A stretch of 64,000 bases of DNA from Antedon mediterranea (taxonomy: Eukaryota > Animalia > Echinodermata): NCBI RefSeq assembly GCF_964355755.1, contig NC_092672.1:7136441-7200440 (forward strand), given 5' to 3'. Made by a program: the position numbers and the translations under genes. Shown piece after piece: positions 17,832-38,677 of this stretch (position 1 is the stretch's first letter; the number at the start of each line of letters is the position of its first letter). The notes under the pieces are model-generated. The model saw only the letters and a program-made list of their open reading frames with translations, was not told the origin of the DNA and ran no database searches.

Positions 17832-17849
17832 TGCAACACTTGGTGCAGA

Positions 17850-18645: not shown

Positions 18646-19334
18646 ATTCCTAGAATGTATTTACAGAATCTTAGATGAACTTTCTCTAATACTGATATAT
18701 CATTTAAACCCCATATTTCGCTACCATAAAGTAAGATTGGCATAATCTTAACATCAAATATATGGTTCCATATATTAACTTGGAGGTTACCAAAACGCCT
18801 ATGGGTCAATCCTTTTAATGTGAACAAAGCCTTATTAGCTTGTTGACAATTGTATTTTTTGGCTTTATTCCAATTACCATTTGAGTTGAAAACAACTCCT
18901 AAATATTTAAAGGATTTGACAATGTCAACTGTATTTCCATTGTAATTCCATTTTTCAAATTTGTTAAGATTACCACCATTCTTAAACACCATAATATTAC
19001 TCTTGTTAACATTGACAGTTACATCCCATCTTGTACAATAGGTAGATAACTTGTTTAAATAATATTGTAGACCATAAACGGTATCACCAAATAACATAAG
19101 GTCATCTGCATAGAGTAAATGATTAATTTTTAGATTTCCTATTTGGATTCTATGCTCGTCGCCTTCCTCATTTAATGTTTCACTCAAATCATTAATAAAA
19201 ACATTAAATAAAAAGGACAAGAGTGGCGAACCCTGTTGTATACCTATTAGACATTTGAAAGAATTACTAATGTTGCCGTCGACCTTAACATGTGCTGATA
19301 ACTTATTGTACATTGAATTAATAACGTTTAACAT
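18627..19334 (-). pseudogene. LINE ORF2 RT core fragment (domains 4-7, YADD)
   Basis: GIQQGSPLSFLFN ... LLYADDLMLFG ... KYLGVVF ... LLYGSEIWG. Confidence 0.65.
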
Positions 19335-19384
19335 TTTTCCTTTTACTCCTGAATTTTTTAGTTTTATGTGAAGATATTGATGTC

Positions 19385-21301: not shown

Positions 21302-21610
21302 AATAGTCTTTAAAGAGGTGGACGTGTAAATACTTTTACTTATATTTTTATTTGTAACATTGGTATATATATTGTTATTATTGACGTTGTTATTCCTATT
21401 ATTAACGTCGGCGTTTATGTTATCGTTATCTATACCATTAGTTTGACCATTATTAGTTGTATTGTCAATATTTTCTTTTTCATGATTTTCGTTATTATTC
21501 TCACCTTTATTATTATTATTATTGTCATTTACGTCATTATCAACAATTGTACCAATAATATTATTACATTTGTTGTTTATTTGATATGTGTTTGGGCCAT
21601 GGCCGGACCC

Positions 21611-22267
21611 CTATCTAGGTTTATATCTACTATACTTAACTACTTTATCATTATCTATATCATATGTAAAAGTTTCGTCATCAATAATGAGTTTATCGTA
21701 TCTTATTTTGAACGGTTTTCCGCTTTTAATAGCTTCATCTATTTTTGGTTGTAAATTTTTTCTGATCTTACGAACTCTTGCTGTGTAATCTTCGCTGATA
21801 GTAATTTGTTTCCTTCTTTCACCCCGGTCTTCATTTTTGTTCATTTTTCGACGTTGTGTTCTACTTGCTTTTAGAACATTTTCTTTAGTTTTGTAATCTT
21901 TGAATTTCACAATGATCGGTCTCGGTTTAAATCTTGCGTTGAGCCTATGTGCCCTCTCAATCTCAATATTCTCCCCACCAATACCGAGATCATTTGTAAA
22001 GTGTTCTTTTACTTTCTTCTCACTCTGATCCCAATTCTCATGTTCGCTATCTACCACTCCATATACTATTAAGTTGTTACGTCTGCTTTGACCTTCAATT
22101 TTGTCTATATGTTTGATTAATTGTAAGTTCATTGTTTTAAGTTGTTGATTTTCTTCTTCTATTATTGTCATTCTTTCGTTTAGTGAGTCCATGTTGCTAT
22201 TTAGTGTATCAATTTTTTCTTTTACGCTTTTAACATCTCCTGAAATGTCATCCATTTTCTTATTCAA
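21611..22267 (-). CDS. LINE ORF1 (coiled-coil + L1 ORF1/Transposase_22-like RRM region)
   Basis: ...RRNNLIVYGV...IEIERAHRL...RPIIVKFKDYKTKENVLKASR matches L1 ORF1p core pattern. Confidence 0.65.
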   Translation of the reverse strand: MNKKMDDISGDVKSVKEKIDTLNSNMDSLNERMTIIEEENQQLKTMNLQLIKHIDKIEGQSRRNNLIVYGVVDSEHENWDQSEKKVKEHFTNDLGIGGENIEIERAHRLNARFKPRPIIVKFKDYKTKENVLKASRTQRRKMNKNEDRGERRKQITISEDYTARVRKIRKNLQPKIDEAIKSGKPFKIRYDKLIIDDETFTYDIDNDKVVKYSRYKPR

Positions 22268-23395: not shown

Positions 23396-23421
23396 TCATG
23401 TCATGTCATGTCATGTCATCT
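23396..23421. repeat. (ATGTC)5 microsatellite
   Basis: catgtcatgtcatgtcatgtcatc. Confidence 0.8.
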
Positions 23422-23725
23422 CCATCTCCCTTTGAGTTTGCTTCTTTTCCTTTTCGCTATCCTTGTCTGCCAAACTGTATAGTCCTGCTTGTCCACATGT
23501 TTTTGCTTGAAGTAGATCTCTGTTTATTATATCTTTCCTTTTGCATGGTACCTTGTTCATTATTGTTATGCCAAGTATTTTCCGTTCTATTGCATACTGG
23601 GTTGATCTTAACTTATCCTTCTTCTCAGTAAGTCTCAAAGTTGAAAAGAAGAGAAAGAAGAAGGTTATTACACACTTCATCTAAATTATAGTGAATGGAG
23701 TAATATTATAGAAAAATGTGATCTA

Positions 23726-24317
23726 ATGCAAGGCTCTTCGGTTTATTTCAGATTCAACCTTGTATCCCGATCCAACTTTGTACCCAGATTCAACCTCGTA
23801 TCCAGATACAACCTTATATCCAGTTTCAACTTCATATCCACATTCGACCTTTTATCCAGATACAACCTCATATCAAGATTCAATCTCATATCCAGATACA
23901 ACATCATATCCAGATACAACCTCGTATCCAGATACAACCTCAAATCAACATTCAACATCATATCTAGATACAACCTCGTATTCAAATTCAATCTCAAAGC
24001 CAGATTCAACCTCATATCTAGATTCAATCTCACATCTAGATACAACCTCGTATCCAGATTCAACCTCGTATCCAGATACAACCTTATATCCAGATACAAC
24101 CTCATATCAAGATCCAATATCATATCCAGATACAACATCATATCCAGATACAACCTCATATCCAGATACAACCTCAAATCCTCATACAACTTCATATCCA
24201 GATTCAATCTCATATCTAGATACAACTTGGTATCCAGATTCAAACTCATATCCAGATTCACCCTGGTATCTAGATCCAAGCTCATATTCAATATTTTCTT
24301 CAGAATATTATTACTCT
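23726..24317. repeat. 18-bp minisatellite (~33 copies, consensus tatccagatacaacctca)
   Basis: Direct reading; unit is a multiple of 3 and lacks stops, so all six frames appear open (ORFs 23726..24379, 23760..24398, 23743..24291 are repeat artefacts). Confidence 0.9.
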
Positions 24318-24362: not shown

Positions 24363-24563
24363 GAATATTTGTATTGTGAGTTTAACGAATATTATTGATT
24401 TTTTTTTCAGCTATTTGTTTAATAAGTATCAACAATTATGATTACAAGCAAATATACCTGTCCTGGGATGGGTTTCAAATAATATAGTTTTACATTCATT
24501 TTAGAAAAAATGTATAGATTATTTAGACCAGTTGTCATAATCACATTGTAATCTATTTTCCAG

Positions 24564-24869
24564 ATAACAATGAAGTTATAAATCTTGTTGGTGGCAATGT
24601 AAAACGAGAAGGTCGACTTGAACTGAAAGGTGATATTTCTGGTACTGTTTGTTCTGTTGGCTGGACCGAAGCAGATGCTGCATTAGTCTGTAAGAGTCTT
24701 GGTTATGAAGGTGTTGACGAATATTTGGTGTATAGCTTTGGAGAAGGGAATGGGACAATTTGGTCGAATATTAATGGTTGTATTGAACATCCTACGTGTA
24801 ATCCAACGGATTCAACGGAAGATCCACAATGCACTCATGCAAATGATGTCGGGATAGTATGTTCACCTT
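24564..24869 (+). CDS. Mosaic LGR-like receptor, exon (SRCR domain 1); phase 1/1; upstream signal-peptide exon not located
   Basis: Acceptor ttttccAG at 24562-63; ...INLVGGNVKREGRLELKGDISGTVCSVGWTEADAALVCKSLGYEG...CTHANDVGIVCSP; donor T|GTAAGT at 24870; frame anchored by ORF 24725..24910. Confidence 0.8.
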
Positions 24870-25118
24870 GTAAGTTAACAGGGAGCTTCGATTTGTTACG
24901 ACCAACCTAGGCCAGGTCAACCGATGTGTCGGCGGTCCCTCGCCTGAACACAGAAACCGTCAAATCTGTGTCGAGGTGGAGATCGCGGACACACGTCCAA
25001 ATAATTTCCTCATGGTCGCCGGTCGTTTAAAAGCGAAAGCTTCTAATATTAAATTGTAATTTCAAAAAATCATGCATGTACCACTTTGAAGCTCAACTTG
25101 TTTACCCCTTTTTTAAAG

Positions 25119-25409
25119 TGACAATTCGACTTGTTGGTGGTGATAATCTGAATGAAGGGCGTGTAGAGTTTAATTATTTTGGTGAGTTTTCAACAATAAG
25201 GGATCTACATATCAGCGAAGCCGACGTCATTTGTCGTTCGCTTCCCTTTCCTTCTGCTGAGTTCTCGGATTGCTGTGGAATATATGGTACTGCCTTTGAC
25301 CTGCCTTCTTATCAAGTCGAATGTAAAGGAAATGAGAAAGAATTATCTGACTGTTCGATATATACTACCTATGATATTGACCAACAATCTGGGATTAGAT
25401 GTTCAACTG
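25119..25409 (+). CDS. Mosaic receptor exon (SRCR domain 2); phase 1/1
   Basis: Acceptor ccccttttttaaAG; VTIRLVGGDNLNEGRVEFNYFGEF...GIRCSTG; donor G|GTAAGA; ORF 25076..25474. Confidence 0.8.
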
Positions 25410-25785
25410 GTAAGAATATGCAATGCAATATTGTTTGCCAAAAGGTATCTGATGAGTTTAGAATTTCTTTATAACATTTCTATCTATTTCTTTCTATATT
25501 AACATTTGTACTAAATTTAACCTGCACTGATTATGTCAATGATAATAAATGTATGACAATTATTATACATTAAATAGTATTTTCTTAAAACAATTTAGTG
25601 TACTTAAAAGTCTTATTTCACAATATATTATTATAACACCAGCTCCTCAATTTTAGATGTTTTCTTTTAAAGAAACATGTACTAGGCCTACATCTTGTAA
25701 ATGTATTAAAGGGCGGAGAGAAGATTCTGGGTGGGTATTTTAATTATTAATTTATCTTTTAATAGTGGTTATGATATTTCCTCAG

Positions 25786-26079
25786 ATGGCGTAAGATTAA
25801 CTGGACAGTTTGAATCAGATGGACCACTTGAAATCTTTACAAGCTCTGCTTGGCATAAAGTATGTTCGGTTGATTTTAACATTGAAGTTGGCGAAGTAAT
25901 CTGCAGTCAACTCAACTTTGATGGTGTTTTAAATGTCACTGACATTGACAGTGACAACGGAACAACAACCATACGAGAAATTAATTGCACAGGAATGGAG
26001 AGAAAATTTGAAGAATGCTCTTTCAATATTGTGCCTGAACAAATGTGCACAAGTTTTGTGAAGCTGTCATGCATTGGAA
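25786..26079 (+). CDS. Mosaic receptor exon (SRCR domain 3); phase 1/1
   Basis: Acceptor atttcctcAG; DGVRLTGQFESDGPLEIFTSSAWHKVCS...VKLSCIG; donor A|GTAAGC; ORF 25731..26114. Confidence 0.8.
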
Positions 26080-26679
26080 GTAAGCAAATACAGTACTTAA
26101 ATATACATTATTAAGCAGGGACAAATTCTTGATATACAAACATTAACTTTCCCTAAGTTGTTATATATTATCTTTTTATATTAATCCACACGTCGACGTT
26201 TCGAATTTGTCTGAAAAATTTCGAGCTCAGGTATTATAAGTATGAAACGCCATGTGTGCCAAAATATTTATGTTTTACCAATATTATATTCAGCCTATAA
26301 CCAAGACATTTGACATTAGAACGTCTTCTTTGGGACACTCTATTTAGATAAACACCTTTACAGAAAACATCCTTTTCAGAGGAAACCTCTTTTCATGGAC
26401 ATTTAGGCCTCCGGGTAAAACGAGGGGCAAACATTGTATATTAATACTGTTGACAGACTCTCAGTTGAATCTCTAAAGTTTCCCTTTAATATGTGTCCAT
26501 TGTTGTAAACATAAGATATTCTTCATCCAGCTACGAAATTTATAGTAAAAAATGACTGACCTTTAATCAACAAAATATTGTTTTCTTGACAGAAAAAAAT
26601 GTTTTAATAATGACATACTGCAGCTAATAATCGTAAGCCATTTGTCTATATTAATTTGTATTTATAATAATATTTACAG

Positions 26680-26958
26680 GTGGATCAAGATTTGCTGATG
26701 GGTATACTAGGAATTCAGGGTATGCGCAGGCATACATTAATAGCGAATGGAATTATATTTGCGACAGTGAAAGAAGAGTTACTGAATTTATCTGCTTACA
26801 AGAGCAATCAACTGGTGTTCACTTAGTACGAAACCAATACCCATTCTACATTTCTGACGAATACGCTGATTGTGACATCACACCCGAAAACAGTCTACAG
26901 TGTAGTCAAAGCTTGGTTGATTGTTTTCCTTATCTTATTTATACGGAATGCTCAACGG
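26680..26958 (+). CDS. Mosaic receptor exon (degenerate SRCR-like domain 4); phase 1/1
   Basis: Acceptor taatatttacAG; SGSRFADGYTRNSGYAQAYINSEWNYICDSERRVTEFICLQEQSTGVHLVRNQYPF...YTECSTG, no stops; donor G|GTATGT. Confidence 0.65.
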
Positions 26959-27505
26959 GTATGTAATTTTTGTTTTATATGCCATCCCTGAGTTCAAATC
27001 CTTCATCTAATTTAAGCCTAATTAACCCTTCATAAAATGCATGTTGAATTCAATAAATGGTAGGTCTATAGGTCTAAATCTGTGTTAAGTGTTAATTAAT
27101 CGCTTCTAAAAGAGTTGTTTCTGACGGTACTTAATGCTTGGATAAATATTTTGCAATAACTGCTTTAAAATCAGAACGTCCATCCATACTATTTGTCATG
27201 TCATCCGCATTATTACTATGATGTCCGTCAGTTATAAGCCTCTGATGACAAATGCAAATAACGATCGACAATCATCTAAATTCATCCATTCTTTATCTAC
27301 AACACATCTTCTTCACAATAGTATAACATACACTGGTCTCCAGTACCATGAACCCCGAATACCAATTCCACGTTCTTGGTATTTATGCCGTTTGTTCATT
27401 ACGTCATTCTATTAACTAGTCAAGCATAGCGGGGAGTAACTAGTGCCATCATTTTGTTTTAAAGATGAGCTTATGAGATAATACTGTACCGCAATTTATA
27501 TTTAG

Positions 27506-27799
27506 ATGTTGTACGAATCAAGGGAGGAGGTCATCGTGGATTTGTTCAAATCTTCAAAGATGGCAAATGGAATTATATTTGCAGTGAAAACTGGAATGTT
27601 CAGACTACTGAGCTTGCTTGTAAAGAACTCAACTTTCGCTCCACTTCTACAGTGACTGGTGTTGGTGTAAACACAACCGCCGTAGTACCCGATGCTCAGA
27701 TCATTATGTGTGATGGAAGTGAATCGAGTTTGCTGAATTGTCAATTTGATACCAACATGCAATGTAAACGTCATGCTGTACAAGTCACGTGTTCTGACG
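27506..27799 (+). CDS. Mosaic receptor exon (SRCR domain 5); phase 1/1
   Basis: Acceptor aatttatatttAG; DVVRIKGGGHRGFVQIFKDGKWNYICSENW...VQVTCSD; donor G|GTGATA; frame anchored by ORF 27652..27861. Confidence 0.75.
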
Positions 27800-28016
27800 G
27801 TGATAATTTGTGCTTTTTTGCTACACTACTATTGTCCTATTATTGTATTATTTTTGTATAAATTAATTAAATTTGTCTAGACCTATCTATACTTACTTTT
27901 TCACTGCCACATTCGTGATTTTATGATAGGAGTATTGGGTATTTAGCAAGAATAGGATTACCTGTAGTAACTAGTGCTGATAAGTAGCGACATCTTTCTT
28001 TTATCTTACTCTACAG

Positions 28017-28328
28017 TTGGTATACGTCTTAGAGGATCGCCAGTAAAGCATGCTGGTCGTGTGGAAATATACAACAACAACCAGTGGTGGACGGTTTGCG
28101 ATGATTATTGGGATACCAATGACGCGAACGTGGCATGCATTATGGCGGGTTATTCTGGAGCTACCAGAGGGTATCGTGAGGCAGCGTTTGGTGAAGGGGT
28201 TGGTCCTATTTTGCGCTATGATTTTTTTTGTGACGGTGATGAAGACGACTTATTTGATTGCCCATTTGGTACACATTCCGATGGATTCTGTTCACATTAC
28301 GAAGATGCAGGAGTGATTTGTTCTACAG
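28017..28328 (+). CDS. Mosaic receptor exon (SRCR domain 6); phase 1/1
   Basis: Acceptor ttttatcttactctacAG; VGIRLRGSPVKHAGRVEIYNNNQWWTVCDDYWDTNDANVAC...CSHYEDAGVICST; donor G|GTACGT; ORF 27974..28378. Confidence 0.85.
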
Positions 28329-28717
28329 GTACGTTTCAGATCTTTGTATATGTGTACCAAAATAATCCAAAGGCATAACACCATAAAGGAGTATAACTGG
28401 GTTTACATGCAAAATTCACACATTTTTATACTTTTTATACAATAAAAAAAACACTACAAGACCTTGAGATTTAGTGTTCAGATTCAAATTCATACACATT
28501 AATTAGGTTATTTGACAATAACTAGGGCCCGCACTAGAAGCAATAGCTTGTATCATGAGGGCCCCTACAAAATAAATATAAATATGCAAAATAAATAAAA
28601 AGAAACATCCCGTCTTAATGTCTGCCCTTTCATGTTATCGTCGCGTAATTGATGTTATTGTGCCGTGATTGTAATTTGTACGATTAATTAAAATGAATGT
28701 CTTGTTCCTTGTAACAG

Positions 28718-29020
28718 ATATAATTCGTCTTTCTGATGGAAGCCCATCTGCCGGTCGGGTTGAACTATTTATCAATGGCCAATGGGGAACGATTTGTGAC
28801 GATAACTGGGACATAAATGATGCCATTGTTATTTGCCGACAATTAGGGTTTGACAGAGCTGCTAACGCATACGACATGGCTAGATTTGGTCCTGGCAAAG
28901 GTCCAATACATTTTGATGAAGTTCAGTGTGCGGGAAGCGAAACCGATATCTTACTGTGTAACACTAAAAGTATTCATGATTGTGAACATTCTGAAGACGC
29001 AGCGGTGTCCTGTGTTTCTG
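28718..29020 (+). CDS. Mosaic receptor exon (SRCR domain 7); phase 1/1
   Basis: Acceptor cttgttccttgtaacAG; DIIRLSDGSPSAGRVELFINGQWGTICDDNWDINDAIVICRQLGF...CEHSEDAAVSCVS; donor G|GTAAAT; ORF 28693..29031. Confidence 0.85.
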
Positions 29021-29951
29021 GTAAATATTGAACAAAATATATAAGTTTGAGTTTTTTTTTCACAGTAGATTTTCCGTCAGATGTTACACACAGTTGTTTA
29101 TCTTTTTCATCTAGTCAGACGAATATGTGGTGAATATTAATTTACAACATTTTGTTGTTCCATATTTTTTTTTGGACCAATTAGTTTGTGGCGAGTTAAA
29201 CTGTGGCCGAGTTTACTTGGGGTCGAGTTATGTATGGTAGATAAGATAGATGATTAAATATCAAATACCTATCATCAATACGTTAGGCAATAAGGAGTAT
29301 CTAAACATTAAATTGAAGCTCCCTTAATAAATCAACATTATTTTCATTGTAAGCTGTACTCTTTTCCTATTTAGACTCATTTGTGACTCCGTCATGGTTG
29401 AAACCATTTAACAGTATTCTGACAAAGGGTAAGTTACCATAAGATCAGTAATAACAAAGTAAATGTTATATTAATGAACAATGGACAGAGAATAAGAAGT
29501 ATTATTCTCATCTGATATATACTATAATAAAAAAGAAACGAAAATGAATAAGAATGCAAGCAAAATCATAATTTATCGAATAAGATAGTAAGATTGAAAT
29601 GAAAAGATAATATCAAGAGTAATGAAACATAAAAGAGAGAAAATTATTACATTTGAGTTTTAATTTAACAAAATAAAAATAACCCTTTACTAGCAGTAAT
29701 GATAGCTTCGATAGAAGCTCTAAGATGATAGACAATACAATTGTTATTTCTAAGAGCTATAGTGTATAAACGGAGTATTTTTAATCGAACGTTTCGATCT
29801 TTATTTTATATCTTTATCAACTCACTGCTTGTTGAATCCAATAGATTCAGGATCGGTTAAAAAATAAAATTATTGTTAATTTAAATGAAGCGAATCAGCA
29901 AATCACCCGTCGTAAACATTGAATTTTCAACAAAGTGTTCAATTTTTGCAG

Positions 29952-30284
29952 GTTGTAAAGACTATTGGTTTCAAAACGATAATTCTTGTATAACAGTTAT
30001 ACATACAGAGCATAGTACTACGCTTTCCGAATTGTCTTGTCCAGAAGGATCGTCAGTTCTTTCAGTAGACACAGAAGTAGGCATGTTAGGAGAATATCTT
30101 CGAATAATATATTACTATTATGAAGAAATCACTCTTAAACTATTTCTTTGGCAAGATGGTAAATCAAAAACTTGCACTTTTTTTAATCGTACTGGTGATA
30201 ATGGAGACACATGGGATGTGATTAGTGTACCGGCAATACAGTGTAACGACGTCTATGCTTATGTTTGTAAAATGGATATTGAAG
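29952..30284 (+). CDS. Mosaic receptor exon (C-type lectin-like domain); phase 1/1
   Basis: Acceptor caatttttgcAG; GCKDYWFQNDNSCITV...LSCPEGSSVLSVDTEVGMLGEYL...WQDGKS...WDVISVPAIQCNDVYAYVCKMD; donor G|GTACAG; ORF 29885..30379. Confidence 0.65.
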
Positions 30285-30506
30285 GTACAGTATTTGTAAT
30301 GTCTCTATGCCATTGTACAATTGGTCTGTATTTAATCATCTACTCAATGATAACATTAATGAACGAGTCTTGTGTTTAATCACGTGTGAAACCAAATTTT
30401 ATAGAGAGTGGTTCAGTACAACATACAGTATTTGTTAAATATACATCATCACATACCTAACATTTTAAAGTATTTATTTGATTAACTCAAACAAATTAAA
30501 TTTTAG

Positions 30507-30635
30507 ATCAGTCTCAAACATGTTCAAACAATCAATTCAGATGTTTATCTGGCGCTTGTATTCTAAAATCATTACAATGTGACGGAAACTTCGATTGCCC
30601 TGACAAAAGCGATGAAGATGAACAATGTATTCAAG
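30507..30635 (+). CDS. Mosaic receptor exon (LDL-receptor class A repeat 1); phase 1/1
   Basis: Acceptor aaattttAG; [37 protein letters not shown]; donor G|GTAATA. Confidence 0.75.
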
Positions 30636-30948
30636 GTAATACAGTAGGCCTATATCAGTATTATTCTCGAGATATTCTCGTGTATTTCTGGTGGAATTTC
30701 TCTCGTTTTCACGACGTAGGCATTCGCGGTCTAAAGGGAATTCTTCTGCGCAGACAAAAAAGTACAGGCCGAATGAAGATAGTTACCACCGGTAAAGTAC
30801 TATAGGCCAGGAATGAGTAGTTCTTTTTTAAAAACCAAAAATTAGTGAAACTAACCTGCTTGACAGCTTCTTTAGAAGAATGGCTATAGGCTAGGCTTCG
30901 CATATTCCATATTATGTATCAATAATATTGCGGTTTTTCTTATTTTAG

Positions 30949-31188
30949 AGTGTTCCGATTCGTTGGACGGCCACGACTATCGGGGGACAAAGAACAATAC
31001 AACAAATGGAATACGTTGTATAAAATGGACAAGTAATTTTAAAGGAACTGATGCGATATATCCAGTAGATTACATTGGTAAAGGTATTGGTGATCACAAC
31101 TTTTGTCGGAATCCAAACGGAAGACAACAGCCATGGTGTTATACAGAGGATTTTTATGAAGTTGAAGATTGTGAAATTCCATTATGTG
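30949..31188 (+). CDS. Mosaic receptor exon (kringle domain); phase 1/1
   Basis: Acceptor tttttcttattttAG; ECSDSLDGHDYRGTKNNTTNGIRCIKW...NFCRNPNGRQQPWCYTEDFYEVEDCEIPLC; donor G|GTGAGG; ORF 30963..31301. Confidence 0.8.
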
Positions 31189-31479
31189 GTGAGGAAATGA
31201 ATATCAGAGTCTATTGTATGCTGTATTTGTTTCAAACAATCTCTTATGGCCAAATCAGCCAGCGTCGTATGACGAGGCGTGAAAACATTAAACATGTTTA
31301 AAGTTCTTGTGACGACCTAAAAACTGCACCTGAAGCTAGCTCAAGACGACTCGTCTCGTTGGGATTCAACTCAGACAGCACCGACGAGTCAAGACGTTTC
31401 GTTTCACTAAAACCTATTCCAAAGTTTTGGTAACAAGTTGTTATTATTTGGGTTATAACACTATATCATTTTTTTTTAG

Positions 31480-31614
31480 ATCAAGTTTCAGATGCAGATT
31501 TAAACAATTGTCCAATCACAAGCTTCCAGTGTTCATCAGGTCATTGTATTTCCTATTCATTCCGTTGTGACCATAAACCAGACTGCCCAGATAGCTCAGA
31601 TGAACAAGATTGTA
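31480..31614 (+). CDS. Mosaic receptor exon (LDLa repeat 2); phase 1/1
   Basis: Acceptor cattttttttttAG; [36 protein letters not shown]; donor A|GTAAGT. Confidence 0.75.
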
Positions 31615-31803
31615 GTAAGTTTATGTTCACATGACTGTTATATTGTTATTTTGGATAAAGATTTGTTTAAAAAAAAGAAAAATAAATAATTTATACGCTT
31701 TGTACTTGGTGCATAGCGCACCGCATAGTCACTTGTTAGACGAACTCACTGGGCCACTCAGTGCTTTAAAATGCGCATAATACATGTTTTTTTTTAATGG
31801 TAG

Positions 31804-31920
31804 TATTCAGGAATTGCACCGATGTCGAGTTTTCCTGTGATAATGGACGCTGTTTACAATCTTCATTGCAATGTAACAGAATTAAAGACTGTTTAGATGG
31901 AACAGACGAACTAAAATGTG
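31804..31920 (+). CDS. Mosaic receptor exon (LDLa repeat 3); phase 1/1
   Basis: Acceptor ttttttttttaatggtAG (the nearer cAG gives a stop-containing frame); NCTDVEFSCDNGRCLQSSLQCNRIKDCLDGTDELKC; donor G|GTAGGC. Confidence 0.7.
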
Positions 31921-32239
31921 GTAGGCGGTTTTTCTTGGATAACATGGCATAACATTAGCACAACATTTTATTGTAAGGGGAGTTTACAGTTGGAGAGATT
32001 TTTTGGATCTTACAGTGTATTATGCCTCATGTAATGTATAGAACAACAAAAGACTGATAGGTTGTAGATACAAAATGGGAAGATCTTTAATGTATGGAAA
32101 ATTAGAAGGTGAAGCCTAGAACGTGCCGCACTGCAACTGCAATTGTATTAAAATAATTTCGCTCGAGTAACAAAAGTGCTGTATATATCCATTTATTTTT
32201 TCCGGTGCAAGTGTCACTTAATACAGTTATCTTTACCAG

Positions 32240-32365
32240 GTGAATGCAGCTCTGGTTTTTTACGATGTAGTGATGGTAAATGTTTGCACCCAAAATTCAA
32301 ATGTGATCGAATAAGAGATTGTCCAACAGGAATTGATGAGCCCATGGATGAGCCAAATAATTGCC
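32240..32365 (+). CDS. Mosaic receptor exon (LDLa repeat 4); phase 1/1
   Basis: Acceptor tatctttaccAG; ECSSGFLRCSDGKCLHPKFKCDRIRDCPTGIDEPMDEPNNC; donor C|GTAAGT; ORF 32176..32373. Confidence 0.8.
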
Positions 32366-32541
32366 GTAAGTAGTAGCAATCAAATAATCACTAACATTTC
32401 ATATTTCATTGAGTTTAGACAGGTATTTGAAGCAAGTTTTTCTTAAGTGAACATATAAATGATGACAGTGACGAAACTAGACTAGCTTTATCATTTGGAG
32501 GCAAGTTATCGCTAATTCTTGTGTTGTCATTCCTATTATAG

Positions 32542-32697
32542 AATATACTGATACAAAATCGTTATGTAATCAAACAGAGATGGTATGCGCAAATGGCATT
32601 TGCATTGATCAGCGTCACCTGTGTCTATTAGACTACGATGTGTATTCAGACGACGTTATAACAGGTTGTCGAGATCGTAGTCACTTACAACATTGTG
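32542..32697 (+). CDS. Mosaic receptor exon (LDLa-like repeat 5); phase 1/1
   Basis: Acceptor tcattcctattatAG; SLCNQTEMVCANGICIDQRHLCLLDYDVYSDDVITGCRDRSHLQHC; donor G|GTGAGT. Confidence 0.7.
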
Positions 32698-33498
32698 GTG
32701 AGTTGTTTCATGTGTTGTGCAACGTTCGTATTTATTCAATATTATAATCATACAACGATCCTGTTTATTCAGGAACGATGGTACTTGACAAAAATGTATA
32801 ACATAAAGGTTTCAATTGCTTTGTTTATCGTGCATTTTCTACTTTTCACAAGTTATGACACGCCATATATGCCTTTTTTAAATATTAAGTCAAAACACCT
32901 GGACCCGAAGACTGGCATATTAAAGTACTTTTCGTGAATAAGTGCATTTTGTAGGATTGTAGATAATAAAAAAATCATTTTGTTTGAAAAATCCAGTAAA
33001 ATAATTACTCACATTCTTTAGCTTTCGCCATCTTGGCTGACGGCTTGATCACAAGTGATCCGGTCCACGGCTACTTCCTGGAAATCTGTTGTTATTGTTT
33101 CTAGGTGACGTCATACTTTTTCGTAGCAATGATGTGTATACGTGATCGAGAAATACAGCTCCTTCGTCGTGGTTGATTGCGTTATACCCCACCCCCCCCC
33201 CTCTTTCTGATTTGGATTGCTTTTACTTTGTAAATTATTTGTTTTATTTTTAAAGTGTGAATTATTTAAAGTACGATTGTTTTATTATTTATTACAAACA
33301 GTTTTCATTGGGGACCTACATGCAACATTATAATAACTCAGCATTTATTTATTATATTTTGATTTGAAGACCCTTACAGAAGACTCGGTTCTCGGGCAAA
33401 TTGTTCCATATATTGTTCCACTAACACAAGAACTTATGAGATAAATCTCCTCTTTTTGCAAAAGTTTCTAACTCTTTAAATCATACTTTATCGTGTAG

Positions 33499-33732
33499 CT
33501 TCATTCGAGTGTCCAGCAAACACATACAAGTGTCCGAGCTCGTACTGCATAACAATCAAAAGCCGATGTGATGGGCGAGATGATTGCGAAAATGGAGAAG
33601 ATGAACAGTATTGTGAGGATTATAACTGTCCAGGATACTTCAAATGTCAAGATGCGTCAAATTGTATTTCTCAAGGTCGTGTGTGTGACGGAATCAAAGA
33701 CTGTCTTCGTGGGGATGATGAACTTTTTTGCG
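33499..33732 (+). CDS. Mosaic receptor exon (LDLa repeats 6 and 7); phase 1/1
   Basis: Acceptor ctttatcgtgtAG; [75 protein letters not shown]; donor G|GTAAGA. Confidence 0.8.
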
Positions 33733-33924
33733 GTAAGATGTGATTCAAAATTCAAAAAATATTAATACTAAATAAATAGAGAATCAGTCATAAAATAAGT
33801 AACACAAAGTGTCATCTATGTGTTCTAGATTATTTGGATACGTTGATTTAGGAAAAAATGAAACCGTAACGAATTGATCTTTAAAATTGTTCAAACTACT
33901 TTTCATTGATAAATTGTGTCATAG

Positions 33925-34033
33925 ATATACAGTGTCCTAACGGGTGTTTCTGCCAGGACCTTTCATACAACTGTCATGGAGTAGAATGGACAGCGGAAAA
34001 AGCTGCCTTAATTTCGCCAGATGTACGATACTT
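33925..34033 (+). CDS. Mosaic receptor exon (LRR N-terminal cap); phase 1/2
   Basis: Acceptor aaattgtgtcatAG; DIQCPNGCFCQDLSYNCHGVEWTAEKAALISPDVRYL; donor TT|GTAAGT. Confidence 0.7.
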
Positions 34034-34246
34034 GTAAGTAAAATAATTTATATTTTTATATATGTATTGTTTATAAAAAGGTAACTAAACATTGTTTCCT
34101 TGCAAACAATTCCATACACAATTTGTCGCAGCCAATCATAAGATCAAAGGACTGTTAAAACTTGGTCCTATATTGGCAAGGCGAGCTCAACATCATGTTG
34201 TTAAATTACCTTGATATTAAATAAGTTCTTTTTTTTTTATTTTCAG

Positions 34247-34339
34247 AAATCTAAGCAAAGTATCTATAGTTCCTTCAGAAGACACAGGTGAAGATCTGCT
34301 ATTCTTAAATCCCAGTATTTTCAAATTAAATTTTGTTTT
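34247..34339 (+). CDS. Mosaic receptor exon (atypical 31-aa LRR); phase 2/2
   Basis: Acceptor ttttttttttattttcAG; NLSKVSIVPSEDTGEDLLFLNPSIFKLNFVL; donor TT|GTAAGT. Confidence 0.6.
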
Positions 34340-34510
34340 GTAAGTTATATTAAATAAAAATAATGTTTAAATAATATTTATGTATAGAGATGAATAACTA
34401 TGCGGCAGTAGTAGAGTATGTTCAAGTATTTTGTTTACACTTGTAGATGTAGTATAACTATTGTGCTTTTTTTTAAACATTACTTAATAATGAGCATTTT
34501 CTTTTTACAG

Positions 34511-34582
34511 AGATATCTCTGGAAACAATATCAAGAAACTAACAGGTGAAATGTTTTATCAGTTAGACCATCTGACAACTCT
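34511..34582 (+). CDS. Mosaic receptor exon (LRR, 24 aa); phase 2/2
   Basis: Acceptor cattttctttttacAG; DISGNNIKKLTGEMFYQLDHLTTL; donor CT|GTAAGT; 72-nt exon typical of LGR LRR exons. Confidence 0.7.
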
Positions 34583-34802
34583 GTAAGTCGTCATCACAAT
34601 TTAGTAAACAGTTTTTAAAAATGGTTTTTGCATTTGGACTTTTGTCAATAGACGTAATAGAGGCCGACGTCATTAGGTTCCTATCTAGAGATCATGTATA
34701 ACGTTATACAGTAATATGTATTCATCAAATGCACCAGAAAGCAGAATAGCAGGTTTATCGTAAATAGTAACGAATTTATAAACTTATATTTACCTATTCT
34801 AG

Positions 34803-34874
34803 ATACATGCAAGGCAACGATATATCATCATTAGAAGGCGATGTCTTCCAGGATTTAAAACAATTGAAATATCT
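34803..34874 (+). CDS. Mosaic receptor exon (LRR, 24 aa); phase 2/2
   Basis: Acceptor tatttacctattctAG; YMQGNDISSLEGDVFQDLKQLKYL; donor CT|GTAAGT. Confidence 0.7.
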
Positions 34875-35103
34875 GTAAGTAAACAATGTTAAACTTATAT
34901 AGAGTAGACTAGTTGTAGTTTTTGGTAAACCTTTGAGTTTATTTTTTTCTAAACCTAATCTGAAGCTCATTAAACATGTTTAGTTAAATTTCTTTATACC
35001 GCTACAATTATAGTAGACTATATATATAATACTTTTGCATAAAAAAACATAAAAAACATACATCAACATTTCGGAACTAATTGTTTATTTGTTTCATTAA
35101 CAG

Positions 35104-35175
35104 TAATATTCATGGCAATGGATTGAAATCCATCGGCAAAGGAACATTTTTCGGATTATCAAAACTCCAGTATTT
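35104..35175 (+). CDS. Mosaic receptor exon (LRR, 24 aa); phase 2/2
   Basis: Acceptor ttatttgtttcattaacAG; NIHGNGLKSIGKGTFFGLSKLQYL; donor TT|GTAAGT. Confidence 0.7.
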
Positions 35176-35367
35176 GTAAGTATAAAGTATTTTAAAGATG
35201 TACGTGAAATGTATCGGTTAATGGAGAAAACACCTTACAATTTAAATACAAAATAGCAAAAAAATATACACAAATATTAAATTACTAAGTAAAAGTTTCA
35301 GATAGTTATTTATCGTGTATATACATATAACAGAATGGTAACATTATTTATTTGTGCTCTATTTTAG

Positions 35368-35439
35368 AAATATGTCTGGAAATAACATTGGTAACGTTGA
35401 TAAATTGATATTCAAGGACTTGATGTCTCTTAAAACATT
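35368..35439 (+). CDS. Mosaic receptor exon (LRR, 24 aa); phase 2/2
   Basis: Acceptor tgctctattttAG; NMSGNNIGNVDKLIFKDLMSLKTL; donor TT|GTGAGT. Confidence 0.7.
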
Positions 35440-35563
35440 GTGAGTAATGCATCTTATGAAAGACAGACTCTTCTACAAAGTATATACAGCAGCTCTTGCT
35501 CTTATAGCGGTGTTGTGTCCATGTAGGAACCGCGAGCTTCATGAAGTAGTTTTTTCATTTCAG

Positions 35564-36632
35564 AATATCTGATGATTATTCATTTTGCTGTTTGTTGGAA
35601 GATGTTGGTTTTAACGACGTTGACTGTACGCCAGATGCAGACGTGTTTTCATCATGTGACAATCTTATGCAGAATGTGTACCTTAGAGCTTTCTTATGGT
35701 TGTTTGGACTGAGTGCACTTCTTGGAAACAGTTTTGTAATCTTATGGCGATGGATAAATTGGCCTGCAAAGAAAAGTCCATCTTACACACAATCGTTTCT
35801 AATTACTAATCTTGCAGTTGCCGATATGCTTATGGGGTTGTATATGTTGATCATTGCCAGTGCCGATTCCTACTATCGGGAAGATTACGTCACACATGAT
35901 AGCGAATGGAAGGCCAGTCGAATATGTACGCTTGCAGGAATCTTAGCCTTTCTATCCAGTGAATCGTCTGTGTACACTTTAACCGTCATTAGCTGCGACA
36001 GGTTTTTGCACATTGCATTTCCATTTCGCCGTTTTCATCTTACACAAGAAACAGTAAAATTTGCAGTGGCTGTAGGATGGTTTCTGACCCTCTTCACGAG
36101 TATTCTTCCAGCATTACCAATCCCGTACTTTAACAATGAGTATTACGGTGTCACCAGCGTGTGTCTTGCATTGCCATTAACGTCGGAAAAAGTGAGAGGT
36201 TGGGAATATACCGCTGCGATTTTTATAGGTTTTAATTCGTTATGCTTCTTGCTAATTTTTGTTTGTTATTCAGGTGTGTTCATTTTAATAAAGATATCGA
36301 GTAGTAAAGTAAATCAAGCAGGAAACATGAATTCTGACAAGAATAAGCACATTGCAATTGCTATACGAATGGCTGTTATTGTCGCTACTGACTTCTGCTG
36401 CTGGGTACCCATCATAATAATGGGTATTTTATCATTGACAACATCTGTTAACATACCCGCCACGGTATATGCCTGGGCTGCAGTCTTCATTTTGCCAATA
36501 AATTCAGCAATTAACCCATACTTATATACAATAGCATCTTTAAAGAAACTTCAAAGGCAACTAAAACCTTCTAAACATGTATCAGAAAGTATGCCAGCTA
36601 CGGAAAGAATAAATGTGAAAATTGGTACGTAA
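35564..36632 (+). CDS. Mosaic receptor large exon: LRR C-terminal cap + rhodopsin-type 7TM (LGR-like), to stop TAA (or alternative donor at 36624/36625)
   Basis: Acceptor agttttttcatttcAG; ISDDYSFCCLLEDVGFNDVDCTPDADVFSSCDNL then 7 hydrophobic helices; CDRFLHIAF (DRY-like) after TM3; NPYLY in TM7; ORF 35592..36632. Confidence 0.85.
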
Positions 36633-36985
36633 AGAAAATTGTCTATTTCTTTATGTAATTAGGATGATAAATCGCCGTTACTGTTACTACAGAGAGAACA
36701 AAAAGTGTTTTTATTCTATATAAATAGTTTGGTCTAAATTTAAACGAACATTTATTTTTAGTAAGTTTTCTAGCCCTCTAAGTAATAATAATGGAAACTG
36801 TTTTCCAAGGGTCCCTCCTACGTTAATTATTTTATAATTGATTGTTAAACTTTTGTTATGTATGTCACGGAAACTGAACGTCATACATCACGTCACATTG
36901 TCTCTCTCCACCTAGTTACAGTAAGAACAACAAGCAATTATTGTAGTCATACTTTTAACTCTTGTTTTTGTCATTGTTTACTCAG

Positions 36986-37155
36986 AAGGTGTAACCATCC
37001 CACAAAATCGAAAAGAGCAATCTACCGTTGAGAAAATCGAAGCTATGTTATCAACTGGAACAGACAGACATGGGAAAGAACTTGATGCAGACGTACGTAA
37101 ACACCTTTCAATGGCGTTGAGATTTGCTAAGCAGCAACAGGCTGGAATTGTACAA
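36986..37155 (+). CDS. Candidate additional C-terminal tail exon of the receptor (phase 1 in, 0 out); speculative
   Basis: Phase-compatible with potential donor ATT G|GTACGT at 36624/25; acceptor tcattgtttactcAG; open frame EGVTIPQNRKEQSTVEKIEAMLSTGTDRHGKELDADVRKHLSMALRFAKQQQAGIVQ; donor CAA|GTAAGA. Confidence 0.3.
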
Positions 37156-37330: not shown

Positions 37331-38244
37331 AACCGTGTAATCCGTCGTTAGGGCAAGTATATTATACTTATAAACTAGTGTTATGGGCAAGTTGCCTATC
37401 TTATCACCTATTGGCTTCAAATATGCTCCCCGCCGCAGTAATGATTTTGTGTGAAAAGTGTGAAGGATAACCATAATTCTGTTGTAGCCTTAAAATATAA
37501 AATATACAAATACATTACAAAAATATCATGTAGCAAATTAGGTTCAGTTATCTATATATAAATTATTACGTAAGAACAAAATTCGGTAAATCGCGTGTTA
37601 CTAGAATGTTTAGGCCTACTCGATGGTATGATAAAGTTGGTTCGTACTTTCGATACTGATTTTAACCACCTGATGTAACCCTGTTTACTGATTAAATTGA
37701 GTTAGATAATTAGTTATTGACAATTAAATTTAGGTTTAACGATTTGCCCCAAATAGGGTCAAATAGGATACACGGTCTAATGGATGTCTATCTAGAAAAA
37801 TACCCGCACACAATAATACGAGGATGCCTCGCATTTTCTCCTAATCTCCTCCTACGATAATTGTTTTTAATAGCTGAAAGCCGGTTGAACTTTTCCAGTA
37901 CAGCATTATAATGTTGAAGACCGGCTGATTTTCTTTAAAAAATACTATTTTGATAGATTTAATAGACGTTTATAGGCCTACAAAAGGATTGCTTGGCGAT
38001 GAATGGAACATTAGTATAAGATAATGCAAGTTGTTTCTATGTTGTATCTAAATGAACACATGTCGTGTAAAGCCGATTTTCCACCAGGCGAATTGTTTCA
38101 CGCGAATCAAAAGCGTCAGCTTTTACGCATGCGTAGATATGGATTTGGAAGACGCTTTCGAGTTGTACGAACAAATTTGCCTATTGGAAAATCAGGTTAA
38201 ATGACAATAAAGATGTATTTATTGTTTTCTTTGGTTTCTTGCAG

Positions 38245-38391
38245 GTTGAGGTTGAGGATTGTGTGGAATCCGAAGAAAATACACAAGAAGAATCTGAAGA
38301 CACTACACAAAATCAAACTCAAGACGAAACACAAGAACGAAGCGAATACTGTATAGGGGTATCTAATTCTGCTTGTGATAACGTTATATAA
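38245..38391 (+). CDS. Candidate terminal exon copy A (acidic Ser/Thr/Glu-rich tail; stop TAA 38389-38391)
   Basis: Acceptor ttctttggtttcttgcAG; VEVEDCVESEENTQEESEDTTQNQTQDETQERSEYCIGVSNSACDNVI*. Confidence 0.3.
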   Translation, partial: VEVEDCVESEENTQEESEDTTQNQTQDETQERSEYCIGVSNSACDNVI

Positions 38392-38488
38392 GATGACCCG
38401 AGTAGTTTCTCTGTTGCATCTAAATGAACAAATAATAAGTCGTGTAAATAACAATAAAAACGTATTGTTCTGTTTTGGTTTCTTCTAG

Positions 38489-38677
38489 GTTGAGGATTGT
38501 GTGGAATCCGAAGAAAACACACAAGAAGAATCTGAAGACACCTCACAAAATCGATCTCAAGACGAAACACAAGAACGAAGCAAATACTGTATAGGAGTGT
38601 CTAATCCTGCCTACGATAACGAATCATACGTCACTACAAGTCTCACCTATCAAGACGACACACTTTTTCAGCATTAA
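38489..38677 (+). CDS. Candidate terminal exon copy B (tandem duplicate of copy A with longer C-terminus; stop TAA 38675-38677)
   Basis: Acceptor tgttttggtttcttctAG; VEDCVESEENTQEESEDTSQNRSQDETQERSKYCIGVSNPAYDNESYVTTSLTYQDDTLFQH*. Confidence 0.3.
   Translation, partial: VEDCVESEENTQEESEDTSQNRSQDETQERSKYCIGVSNPAYDNESYVTTSLTYQDDTLFQH

Follow-up and report, generated by a model that had tools for sequence, protein, structure and literature searches.

The 64,000-nucleotide stretch of Antedon mediterranea DNA analysed here (the window) probably contains, with a likelihood we put at roughly three in four, one feather-star protein-coding gene of at least 25 coding exons that runs on the + strand from 24564 to about 38677, is predicted to encode an orphan type-C LGR, and is a member of a crinoid-specific subfamily. 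The gene is real and apparently intact; its predicted product is a relaxin-receptor-like GPCR that measures at least about 1,830 aa and whose extracellular part is very large. From the outside inward, the predicted protein begins distally with seven SRCR domains, six of them good and one degenerate, followed by a short linker, a compact domain of C-type-lectin-like fold, one LDLa module, and a kringle; continues toward the membrane with six further LDLa modules (one degenerate), an LRR cap, about six LRRs, and a short Cys-rich hinge; and ends in a rhodopsin-class 7TM domain with intact micro-switch motifs and a cytoplasmic tail some 120 aa long. Public databases contain predicted proteins that are related or nearly identical to this one, and we know of none that has been studied so far.

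A preliminary description of the locus proposed 22 mutually phase-compatible + strand exons, all of which were borne out: they lie at the coordinates proposed, between AG acceptors and GT donors, and spliced together (5,108 nt) they give a 1,701-codon frame without interruption that ends in TAA at 36630–36632. Since the window is about 33% G+C, an open frame of this length is not attributable to chance. The exons for the SRCR, lectin-like, LDLa, and kringle modules are in phase 1/1, the LRRNT exon passes from phase 1 to phase 2, and the LRR exons are in phase 2/2. The set was not complete, however, as it omitted a 54-nt linker exon and the exons 3′ of the 7TM exon. The linker (29375–29428, phase 1/1, acceptor tatttag, donor gtaagt; …DSFVTPSWLKPFNSILTK…) matches the Anneissia linker of P0001, P0003, and P0005, and is also found in the Antedon model XP_071944555.

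Pfam analysis of the product recognized SRCR (1.2e-103), Ldl_recept_a (5.1e-52), Kringle (4.8e-17), LRR_8 (5.8e-22), and 7tm_1 (1.4e-28), and the proposed order of modules (SRCR array, lectin-like, LDLa, kringle, LDLa array, LRRs, rhodopsin-type 7TM) holds; no additional copies of the SRCR, LDLa, kringle, LRR, or 7TM modules were found elsewhere in the window. Six of the seven proposed SRCR modules are good by Pfam, i.e. module 1, the first recognizable coding exon (24564–24869, acceptor ttttccag, donor gtaagt, 8.7e-14; 67% identical to the exon of the Anneissia paralogue L002), module 2 (25119–25409, 9.5e-11), module 3 (25786–26079, 2.3e-14), module 5 (27506–27799, 1.9e-13), module 6 (28017–28328, 2.9e-24), the C-terminal 62 residues of which match the beginning of Antedon XP_071944555 without a difference, and module 7 (28718–29020, 3.7e-29), which is 100/100 identical to the same model. 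Module 4 (26680–26958) is degenerate: it has no Pfam match, its AlphaFold model is unusable (pLDDT 46), and it aligns with a profile of the six good modules over its N-terminal 48 residues only (hhalign probability 89.5%, E 2e-6). It is kept at the same position in Anneissia.

The C-type lectin assigned to exon 29952–30284 held at the level of the fold but not of the family. Pfam did not recognize Lectin_C in this exon, giving UL45 C-type lectin-like alone (E 0.02), and none of EPN, QPD, and WND, the sugar-binding motifs of C-type lectins, is visible in the module sequence. The AlphaFold model (pLDDT 77.7), compared with the PDB using Foldseek, nevertheless returned C-type lectin-like domains for all of its best 30 matches (TM 0.47–0.65, best E 1.1e-3), which suggests a compact C-type-lectin-like fold, seen at fold level only.

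The modules between the lectin-like exon and the membrane are mostly canonical. LDLa 1 (30507–30635) and the kringle (30949–31188, Pfam Kringle 4.8e-17) are 83% and 65% identical, respectively, to their Anneissia exons, and LDLa 2 (31480–31614), LDLa 3 (31804–31920), and LDLa 4 (32240–32365) were identified by Pfam and by comparison with Anneissia exons. LDLa 6 and LDLa 7 share an exon (33499–33732) that is 77/77 identical to P0067. Six LDLa modules thus stand as canonical; the remaining one, LDLa-like module 5 (32542–32697), is degenerate, with an Ldl_recept_a match under threshold (E 0.022), and is kept in both Anneissia and Antedon. The LRR N-terminal cap (33925–34033) is followed by LRR 1 (34247–34339) and by LRRs 2 to 5 (34511–34582, 34803–34874, 35104–35175, and 35368–35439), which are recognized by Pfam (LRR_8 for LRR 2). 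The phase proposed for the LRR exons is right throughout, and their proposed size of 72 nt applies to the last four, the first being 93 nt.

The Cys-rich hinge and 7TM domain are encoded by a single exon (35564–36624, 7tm_1 1.4e-28). The CDRF and NPYLY motifs noted previously both lie in the stretch 35564–36632, and the 7TM motifs comprise the D in TM2 (LAVAD), DRF, CWVP, and NPYLY. In a comparison with solved structures, RXFP1 was by far the best match (2.1e-70, 241 bits; LGR4 and TSHR reached about 142 and about 139 bits, respectively), in an alignment that spans the LRRs, the hinge, all TMs, and ECL2, with NPxxY conserved; the assignment of the LDLa-LRR-7TM core to the type-C LGRs is thereby supported. 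A GYF motif present in the RXFP1 LDLa is also found in LDLa 7 of the Antedon protein. In contrast, the ECL2 sequence C-F-P-L of RXFP1 is C-L-A-L in the Antedon protein, such that the critical RXFP1 Phe is replaced by Leu.

By analogy with the autoinhibition model of RXFP1 (bioRxiv 10.1101/2022.01.22.477343) and with the part that the LDLa module plays in type-C LGRs (PMC4561518), the LRR-hinge-ECL2-7TM unit probably acts in an RXFP1-like manner: the ectodomain would keep ECL2 and the hinge inactive until ligand binding, after which the receptor may signal through a G protein, Gs being the likeliest. The SRCR/lectin-like/kringle/LDLa array may act as a multivalent arm that captures a large or polyvalent ligand outside the cell, candidates being a protein, a lipoprotein, or a microbial surface. 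A link of the receptor to innate immunity is speculation.

The 7TM exon had been taken as the final exon, of 1.07 kb, but the gene continues beyond it. The stop at 36630–36632 lies 6 nt past a donor (G|gtacgt, 36624), is bypassed by splicing from that donor, and comes into use only when the donor is skipped. The resulting junction, …NVKI|EGVT…, is found in Antedon XP_071944551 and XP_071944555, and the 3′ splices agree residue for residue with XP_071944551. The first tail exon (36986–37155, phase 1 in and 0 out, acceptor actcag, donor gtaaga) is 55/56 identical to P0067 and matches the Anneissia tail (E 0.02). It is followed by two candidate terminal coding exons in tandem, copy A (38245–38391, VEVEDC…DNVI, stop TAA at 38389–38391) and copy B (38489–38677, VEDC…LFQH, stop TAA at 38675–38677), which are 91% identical to each other and differ in their C-termini, that of copy B matching Antedon proteins.

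Very probably, to judge from predicted proteins of other crinoid loci, a single gene joins the SRCR block to the LGR block, as the preliminary description held. The introns from 24564 to 37155 are all below 1.1 kb and the last is about 1.1–1.3 kb, so there is no obvious space for an intergenic region; a start codon with its own signal peptide is absent from the LGR half, as is a terminal exon from the SRCR half. Anneissia XP_033099551 (L002) unites a signal peptide, 7 SRCR domains, the 7TM, and the tail in one model, the alignment with P0003 is unbroken from SRCR1 to LRR5 (47% identity), and Antedon XP_071944555 carries SRCR6-7, at 162/162 identity with the window, followed by the linker, the lectin-like module, and LDLa1, in one model with LDLa, LRR, 7TM, and tail exons. 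This cross-species support consists of automated gene models only, which may have served as evidence for one another and several of which show obvious flaws (starts at an internal Met, skipped exons, and in XP_071944555 a deletion in TM5).

It is possible, if somewhat unlikely, that this one gene gives several products (the complete mosaic receptor along with shorter LGR versions and, possibly, soluble SRCR ones) through alternative promoters, phase-symmetric exon skipping, alternative terminal exons, or read-through to 36632. Because every ectodomain exon is phase-symmetric, skipping keeps the frame; XP_071944555 lacks the kringle, LDLa2-3, LRRNT, and LRR1, XP_071944551 lacks LRRNT and LRR1-2, and the lectin-like, LDLa1, kringle, and LDLa2 exons are missing from the L002 DNA itself. 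The tandem pair of terminal exons, each with its own C-terminus, and the stop 6 nt past the 36624 donor point the same way. However, the exons missing from the Antedon models may reflect errors of modelling, and a receptor modelled without LRRNT, or without part of TM5, would probably not function.

An improbable reading is that of two adjacent same-strand genes, separately transcribed, the first for a secreted SRCR-lectin-like-LDLa-kringle protein and the second for a GRL101-like LGR (LDLa-LRR-7TM); the uninterrupted frame would then follow from phase-1/1 compatibility. RefSeq annotates Anneissia L001, with the same exon order as the window, in this way (XP_033110166, ‘SRCR superfamily protein-like’, then XP_033110165, ‘GRL101-like’), two of the three Anneissia loci are annotated without the SRCR part, Antedon XP_071944551 covers the LDLa-LRR-7TM-tail part only, and phase-1/1 compatibility alone is weak evidence for joining, since all such modules fit one another. 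Yet the split point varies, falling after the kringle in L001 (a 420-bp gap to LDLa2, no larger than neighbouring introns) and after the last LRR exon, before the 7TM exon, in L003, where the 3′ model begins at an internal Met just ahead of TM1; both gaps (420 bp and about 1.5 kb) are intron-sized. The downstream models begin at internal or intron-derived Met residues, without a signal peptide despite a large ectodomain, and the end of the upstream model (…RCCKFITLH) resembles intron read-through. The supposed boundary is bridged in XP_033099551, XP_033110388, and XP_071944555, and the arrangement is kept across two crinoid families and paralogues 47–66% identical.

As in the preliminary description, no signal-peptide exon was found, here in 24.5 kb of upstream sequence; this flank consists of a minisatellite (23749–24287), a LINE (about 17.1–22.3 kb), and macrosatellites (1–14.5 kb), so the 5′ end may be truncated or the first exon may lie outside the window. 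That the copy is a 5′-truncated or otherwise non-functional duplicate with exons not yet decayed, in which LINE and satellite DNA stand in place of promoter and signal-peptide exon, is hardly likely, even with at least two relatives 96–97% identical in the Antedon reference, given that 25/25 exons are open with canonical splice sites, that neither the cysteine patterns nor the GPCR micro-switches are disrupted, that signal-peptide-only first exons are short, poorly conserved, and easily overlooked, and that a LINE within a first intron is common.

The gene has relatives in echinoderms and hemichordates alike, and sequence databases hold precedents for its architecture, which the preliminary description did not know from characterised receptors. 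The A. mediterranea RefSeq models nearest to it, two in number, are 96–97% identical, the same or similar predicted proteins occur in two crinoids, and the locus is part of a type-C (GRL101-like) LGR subfamily of crinoids. The closest other 7TMs (49–53% identity) are those of 2,000–2,900-aa LGRs of Acanthaster, Anneissia, Antedon, Saccoglossus, and Glandiceps, which carry kringle, F5/8C, EGF, CUB, Lectin_C, and LDLa modules. The mosaic principle is widespread in starfish, crinoid, and acorn-worm LGRs, with the SRCR array as the crinoid variant, and the subfamily probably arose from ambulacrarian giant mosaic LGRs via shuffling of phase-1/1 exons. In an NJ tree, the crinoid SRCR clade adjoins the echinoderm members of the giant mosaic LGR group.

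The preliminary description placed 22 plus-strand exons of a mosaic receptor gene between 24564 and 36632, and the architecture it gave is essentially correct, although the borders of the gene needed correcting. Stop-to-stop translation places cysteine-rich modules along the plus strand from 24.5 to 36.7 kb, in a window of ~33% G+C. Spliced together, the 22 exons total 5,108 nt and give 1,701 codons, open up to a TAA at 36630–36632. The splice borders and phases of each module hold: each is flanked by an AG acceptor with its pyrimidine tract and by a GT donor, in most cases GTAAGT-like. The LRR exons, described as 72 nt each, have this length except for the first, which is 93 nt. Two further plus-strand exons that had been missed were located by tblastn with crinoid homologues: a 54 nt linker exon (29375–29428, phase 1/1, acceptor tatttag, donor gtaagt), encoding …VTPSWLKPFNSILTK…, and a tail exon (36986–37155). 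The latter is spliced from a donor (G/GTACGT at 36624/36625) lying 6 nt before the stop that had been taken as the end of the last exon, and the gene runs on beyond it. From 37155 the frame is joined in phase 0 to a terminal coding exon present in two tandem copies on the same strand (copy A, 38245–38391; copy B, 38489–38677), with 91% identity and 238-bp spacing (repeat spans 38249–38383 and 38487–38621), giving alternative C-termini. Both 3′ junctions (…NVKI/EGVT… and …GIVQ/VEVEDC…) are matched residue for residue by the Antedon mediterranea RefSeq protein XP_071944551; this brings the gene to at least 25 coding exons and moves its end from 36632 to near 38.7 kb, with a predicted product of ~1,822–1,836 residues, N-terminus not included. 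Only a single terminal exon is present in either A. mediterranea RefSeq protein (XP_071944551 and XP_071944555). Another copy of the 3′ flank of the terminal exon lies at 38015–38061, forming a repeat pair with 38387–38433. The AATAAA poly-A signals, of which the AT-rich window contains 279, are uninformative.

That these exons arose by chance or are pseudo-exons is ruled out by their Pfam E-values and by conservation in two crinoid genera; the gene is real and probably functional. Gene structure and comparison with homologues lead us to place the probability that the SRCR and 7TM exons form a single transcription unit at roughly 85%. Two separate genes, an upstream SRCR half and a downstream LGR half, are what the RefSeq annotation gives at the Anneissia japonica locus L001 (XP_033110166 and XP_033110165), as an ‘SRCR superfamily protein-like’ model followed by a ‘GRL101-like’ model. 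In the window, the introns within 24564–37155 are all <1.1 kb and the last is ~1.1–1.3 kb, the LGR half has no initiator methionine with a signal peptide despite its large ectodomain, and the SRCR half has no terminal exon, all of which count for one gene; the phase-1/1 compatibility of the modules is by itself uninformative on this point. The exon order at L001 is identical to that in the window, and the kringle and LDLa2 exons, where the annotation breaks, are 420 bp apart. There the upstream model seems to read through into an intron, and the sequence with which the downstream model opens likewise looks intronic. At a second A. japonica locus, L003 (XP_033110388 and XP_033110409), it is the last LRR exon and the 7TM exon that are separated; the 3′ model there begins at an internal methionine just before TM1, and this split cannot be biological. 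The RefSeq splits of the two loci, which are at different junctions (9580/10001 in L001 and 8450/10001 in L003), are probably annotation errors.

XP_033099551 (locus L002 of A. japonica) is one model from signal peptide through seven SRCR modules to the 7TM and tail, XP_033110388 is unbroken from SRCR1 to the last LRR, and the A. mediterranea protein XP_071944555 runs from SRCR6–7 (162 of 162 residues as in the window) through linker, lectin-like module and LDLa1 into LDLa, LRR, 7TM and tail. Together the homologous models bridge each junction of the window model at least once. Look-ups of transcript and genomic records encoding XP_071944551, XP_071944555 or the 7TM ORF of the window returned nothing. 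What counts against a single gene is that the bridging models come from automated prediction, may not be mutually independent and are in several cases imperfect. There is a realistic chance of exon skipping or alternative ends.

Pfam recovered the module families expected of the product from the preliminary description (SRCR, 1.2e-103; Ldl_recept_a, 5.1e-52; Kringle, 4.8e-17; LRR_8, 5.8e-22; 7tm_1, 1.4e-28), and extra copies of these modules were not found elsewhere in the 64-kb window. Six of the seven SRCR modules that had been counted (1, 2, 3, 5, 6 and 7) were detected in an exon-by-exon scan, with Pfam E-values from 9.5e-11 to 3.7e-29, whereas module 4 (26680–26958) has no Pfam match. Its N-terminal 48 residues match the profile of the other six (hhalign 89.5%, E 2e-6), and its AlphaFold structure prediction is too poor to use (pLDDT 46); on the sequence comparison, module 4 is a degenerate SRCR-like module kept at the same position in Anneissia. 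The exon at 29952–30284, initially read as a C-type lectin, can be assigned as such at the level of fold only, since it has neither the Lectin_C profile nor the sugar motifs. In Pfam there was no Lectin_C match even at E <= 10, the only hit being a sub-threshold one to UL45 (E 0.02), and a PDB sequence-profile search with the module returned no match. An AlphaFold model of moderate quality, built from a three-sequence alignment (pLDDT 77.7, pTM 0.72), was compared with the PDB using Foldseek; the best 30 matches are all CTLDs (TM 0.47–0.65, best E 1.1e-3), which supports a CTLD fold with moderate confidence. The module is 110 residues long, compared with the usual ~125–135 for a CTLD, and neither EPN/QPD nor WND Ca2+/carbohydrate-binding motifs could be read from its sequence. 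It is best regarded as a compact CTLD-like fold and is probably not a sugar-binding lectin.

The kringle, at 62.5 bits, passes the gathering cut-off of its profile, which is 34.3 (E 4.8e-17). Of seven LDLa modules six are canonical, Ldl_recept_a covering six stretches, and the exon at 32542–32697 encodes a degenerate one (Pfam E 0.022); LDLa7 ends directly 5′ of the LRRNT exon. The LRRNT exon is followed by five LRR exons, giving ~six LRRs in the predicted protein, and then by a hinge (CCLL…C…C) in or just before the 7TM exon. Within the 7TM, the class-A micro-switches read from the sequence are kept (the TM2 Asp in LAVAD, DRF, CWVP and NPYLY), as are the TM3–ECL2 cysteines, so that it looks like a signalling-competent GPCR. 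Assignment to the adhesion (class B2) GPCRs can be rejected, since the C-terminal 519 residues match only 7tm_1 and LRR families and contain no GPS site.

The type-C LGR core proposed earlier is borne out by a PDB sequence search, in which RXFP1 is the best match among solved structures (2.1e-70, 241 bits, versus ~142 for LGR4 and ~139 for TSHR), with an alignment extending through the LRRs and hinge. The receptor resembles the type C1 LGRs RXFP1 and RXFP2 in its rhodopsin-class 7TM, an LDLa N-terminal to the LRR domain, NPxxY, a short Cys-containing hinge and a similar ECL2 layout, and its LRR-adjacent LDLa carries the GYF motif found around RXFP1 Tyr9. In contrast to the 10 LRRs and one LDLa of RXFP1/RXFP2, there are ~six LRRs and seven LDLa modules here, together with >900 extra N-terminal residues (seven SRCR modules, the lectin-like module and the kringle) and a long acidic C-terminal tail. 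Motif-level comparison with RXFP1 gives C-L-A-L for C-F-P-L in ECL2, with Leu in place of Phe564, DNLM for ENLL in the hinge, and DRF for EKY.

Many LDLa modules with ~six LRRs characterize the type C2, or GRL101-type, LGRs (PMC4561518; PMC8286064; PMC11863921), a description that the predicted receptor, with its seven LDLa modules and ~six LRRs, fits. In the orphan Lymnaea stagnalis GRL101, too, ~six LRRs and a type-C 7TM come after numerous LDLa modules, but the SRCR, lectin-like and kringle modules of the receptor described here are missing. Veenstra reported a single true GRL101 per crinoid, with LRRs at residues 576–717 (PMC8286064). The predicted receptor is probably not the one-to-one GRL101 orthologue. 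A neighbor-joining tree without support values, in which GRL101 was represented by a scallop (mollusc) sequence, places the window in a crinoid-only clade that neighbours the giant mosaic LGRs of echinoderms and is remote from the scallop sequence.

Within this clade, the LRR–7TM part is 97% identical to XP_071944551 and the shared exons are 96% identical to XP_071944555, the next relatives being several A. japonica proteins at 47–66% identity, the shorter of which NCBI calls ‘GRL101-like’. All of these crinoid relatives (XP_033099551, XP_033110388 with XP_033110409, XP_033110166 with XP_033110165, XP_071944551 and XP_071944555; 47–66% identity for Anneissia, 96–97% for Antedon) have family and exon order in common with the window gene. 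Differences lie in the split or truncated state of several models and in the duplicated terminal exon of the window, and XP_033099551 has five extra N-terminal LDLa modules and is without the lectin-like, LDLa1, kringle and LDLa2 exons. When the linker-to-LDLa5 region was used as a homology query, nothing beyond XP_071944551 and remote LDLa proteins came up; the known Anneissia homologues were missed as well, so this negative outcome carries little weight. XP_071944551 and XP_071944555 are distinct models in the same 90% cluster and on the same 38.96-Mb contig. XP_071944555 is 100% identical to the window in SRCR6–7 but only 87–93% in the LRR and tail exons, a pattern that could reflect recent duplication, gene conversion or a chimeric model.

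An exhaustive HMMER search with the contiguous 7TM exon gave 6,183 matches, and the modules of the large relatives were taken from Pfam and cluster look-ups. The closest 7TMs outside the crinoid SRCR clade (49–53% identity) lie at the C terminus of very large RefSeq ‘uncharacterized’ proteins. In Acanthaster planci, LOC110983669 (2,767 aa) combines a kringle, F5/8C x3, EGF_CA, CUB x3, Lectin_C x2, LDLa x4, LRR and 7tm_1, and LOC110983144 (2,565 aa) a kringle, F5/8C x3, CUB x2, Lectin_C x2, LDLa x2, LRR and 7tm_1. Among crinoids, A. japonica LOC117120284 (2,895 aa) has F5/8C x3, EGF_CA, CUB x2, LDLa x4, LRR and 7tm_1, and A. mediterranea XP_071964993 (2,026 aa) has CUB x2, LDLa x4, LRR and 7tm_1. 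CUB x5, EGF_CA, Lectin_C, LDLa x4, LRR and 7tm_1 make up Saccoglossus kowalevskii LOC102803992 (2,799 aa), and two Glandiceps talaboti proteins (1,761 and 1,348 aa) contain CUB, Lectin_C, LDLa x4, LRR and 7tm_1. Smaller relatives combine SRCR, LRR and 7TM (S. purpuratus XP_030847651), CUB, Lectin_C, LRR and 7TM (Amphiura), or CUB, LDLa, LRR and 7TM (Patiria). Mosaic ectodomains are thus the rule on this LGR lineage in ambulacrarians. The giant ambulacrarian proteins share with the window receptor a C-terminal core of lectin, LDLa array, short LRR and 7TM, and in some cases a kringle; they lack SRCR, carry F5/8 type C, EGF_CA and CUB modules as well as four canonical LDLa modules, and have their kringle, if any, at the N terminus. 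The seven-SRCR array is most simply explained as the crinoid version of this mosaic, produced by phase-1/1 exon shuffling.

SRCR repeats also occur in the ectodomains of seven-transmembrane receptors in the sponge Amphimedon (PMC4302439); these adhesion GPCRs are, however, of class B2, with 7tm_2 and GPS/GAIN, in contrast to the class A 7tm_1 and the lack of a GPS here, and they were the only GPCRs with SRCR repeats found in the literature searched. A survey of SRCR partner domains includes 7tm_2, with 7tm_1 absent (PMC10855680). DMBT1, CD163/M130 and the sea-urchin SRCR families resemble the N-terminal region in their tandem SRCR modules, one exon per domain, but are secreted or single-pass proteins with no GPCR moiety; multi-SRCR proteins are the best non-crinoid matches to the N-terminal 40%, at only 26–32% identity. 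Crinoid RefSeq annotations already contain the receptor without a name, and it belongs to a broader set of ambulacrarian mosaic-ectodomain LGRs (1,300–2,900 aa) for which, as SRCR-, kringle- or CUB-bearing LGRs, we found no description in the literature searched and to which it draws attention.

In RXFP1, the LRRs and hinge restrain ECL2, which fills the orthosteric pocket, and release it on ligand binding (bioRxiv 10.1101/2022.01.22.477343), and the LDLa module is also required for activation in type-C LGRs (PMC4561518). By analogy with RXFP1, the LRR–hinge–ECL2 unit would be the switch, the proximal LDLa with its GYF motif would take part in activation, and the distal array of SRCR, lectin-like, kringle and LDLa modules would capture a large or polyvalent ligand; coupling is perhaps to Gs. 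One extension of this scheme, which we consider improbable and put forward purely as a hypothesis, is that crinoids have a small family of class-A GPCRs with scavenger-receptor-array ectodomains that act as true pattern-recognition GPCRs, in which the arm binds microbial or damaged-self polyanionic surfaces, relieves LRR–hinge autoinhibition and directly triggers a G-protein response in immune or epithelial cells. If true, innate recognition would be linked to G-protein signalling by a route for which no animal precedent has been described. Should the full-length product be made, it would show that exon shuffling put a scavenger-receptor array on a relaxin-receptor-type GPCR. More generally, the mosaic LGRs are candidate sensors of large ligands outside the cell (matrix, lipoprotein or microbial surfaces, for example). 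They are relevant to type-C LGR activation, because the proposed ligand-capture part here is far from the LRR–hinge switch, and to annotation, because automated pipelines repeatedly split or truncate such genes.

The preliminary description had no signal-peptide exon, and none that is convincing was found upstream of 24564, either by homology (tblastn with Anneissia N termini revealed neither an upstream LDLa nor a signal-peptide exon) or in two heuristic scans that combined an ATG with a hydrophobic core and a donor in compatible phase, which gave only weak candidates. The most plausible of these, MSCHLHLPLSLLLFLFAILVCQT at 23408–23476, was rejected; it has a poor donor (GTATAG) and is in phase 0, which is wrong for 24564 and fits only an alternative acceptor at 24527. 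This ORF comes after an (ATGTC)4 run and is probably a chance product of a pyrimidine-rich tract. A minisatellite at 23749–24287 (18-bp period with higher-order 36 and 54 bp periods, ~30 copies, ~80% match) precedes the first SRCR exon by ~280 bp; it is followed by a (TTA/T)n-like run and contains long spurious ORFs in several frames. Further upstream, a non-LTR retrotransposon (LINE) with endonuclease and reverse-transcriptase domains occupies the minus strand at 17118–22267, its reading frame broken into several ORFs: an ORF1-like ORF (21611–22267), the endonuclease with the start of the reverse transcriptase (19385–21301), and more of the reverse transcriptase (18627–19334). Positions 1–14500 consist of two interleaved macrosatellite arrays with a higher-order duplication of ~7.5 kb (copies 81–100% identical), one with a ~1.42 kb unit (~4.1–8.4 kb and 11.6–14.4 kb) and one with a ~1.56 kb unit (~1.0–4.1 kb and 8.6–11.5 kb). 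On the other, downstream side of the receptor gene, the next gene is a tektin gene in the same orientation, as indicated by a plus-strand exon at 51143–51478 for the C-terminal third of the protein (Pfam Tektin 9.9e-43, covering profile positions 277–381 of 383).
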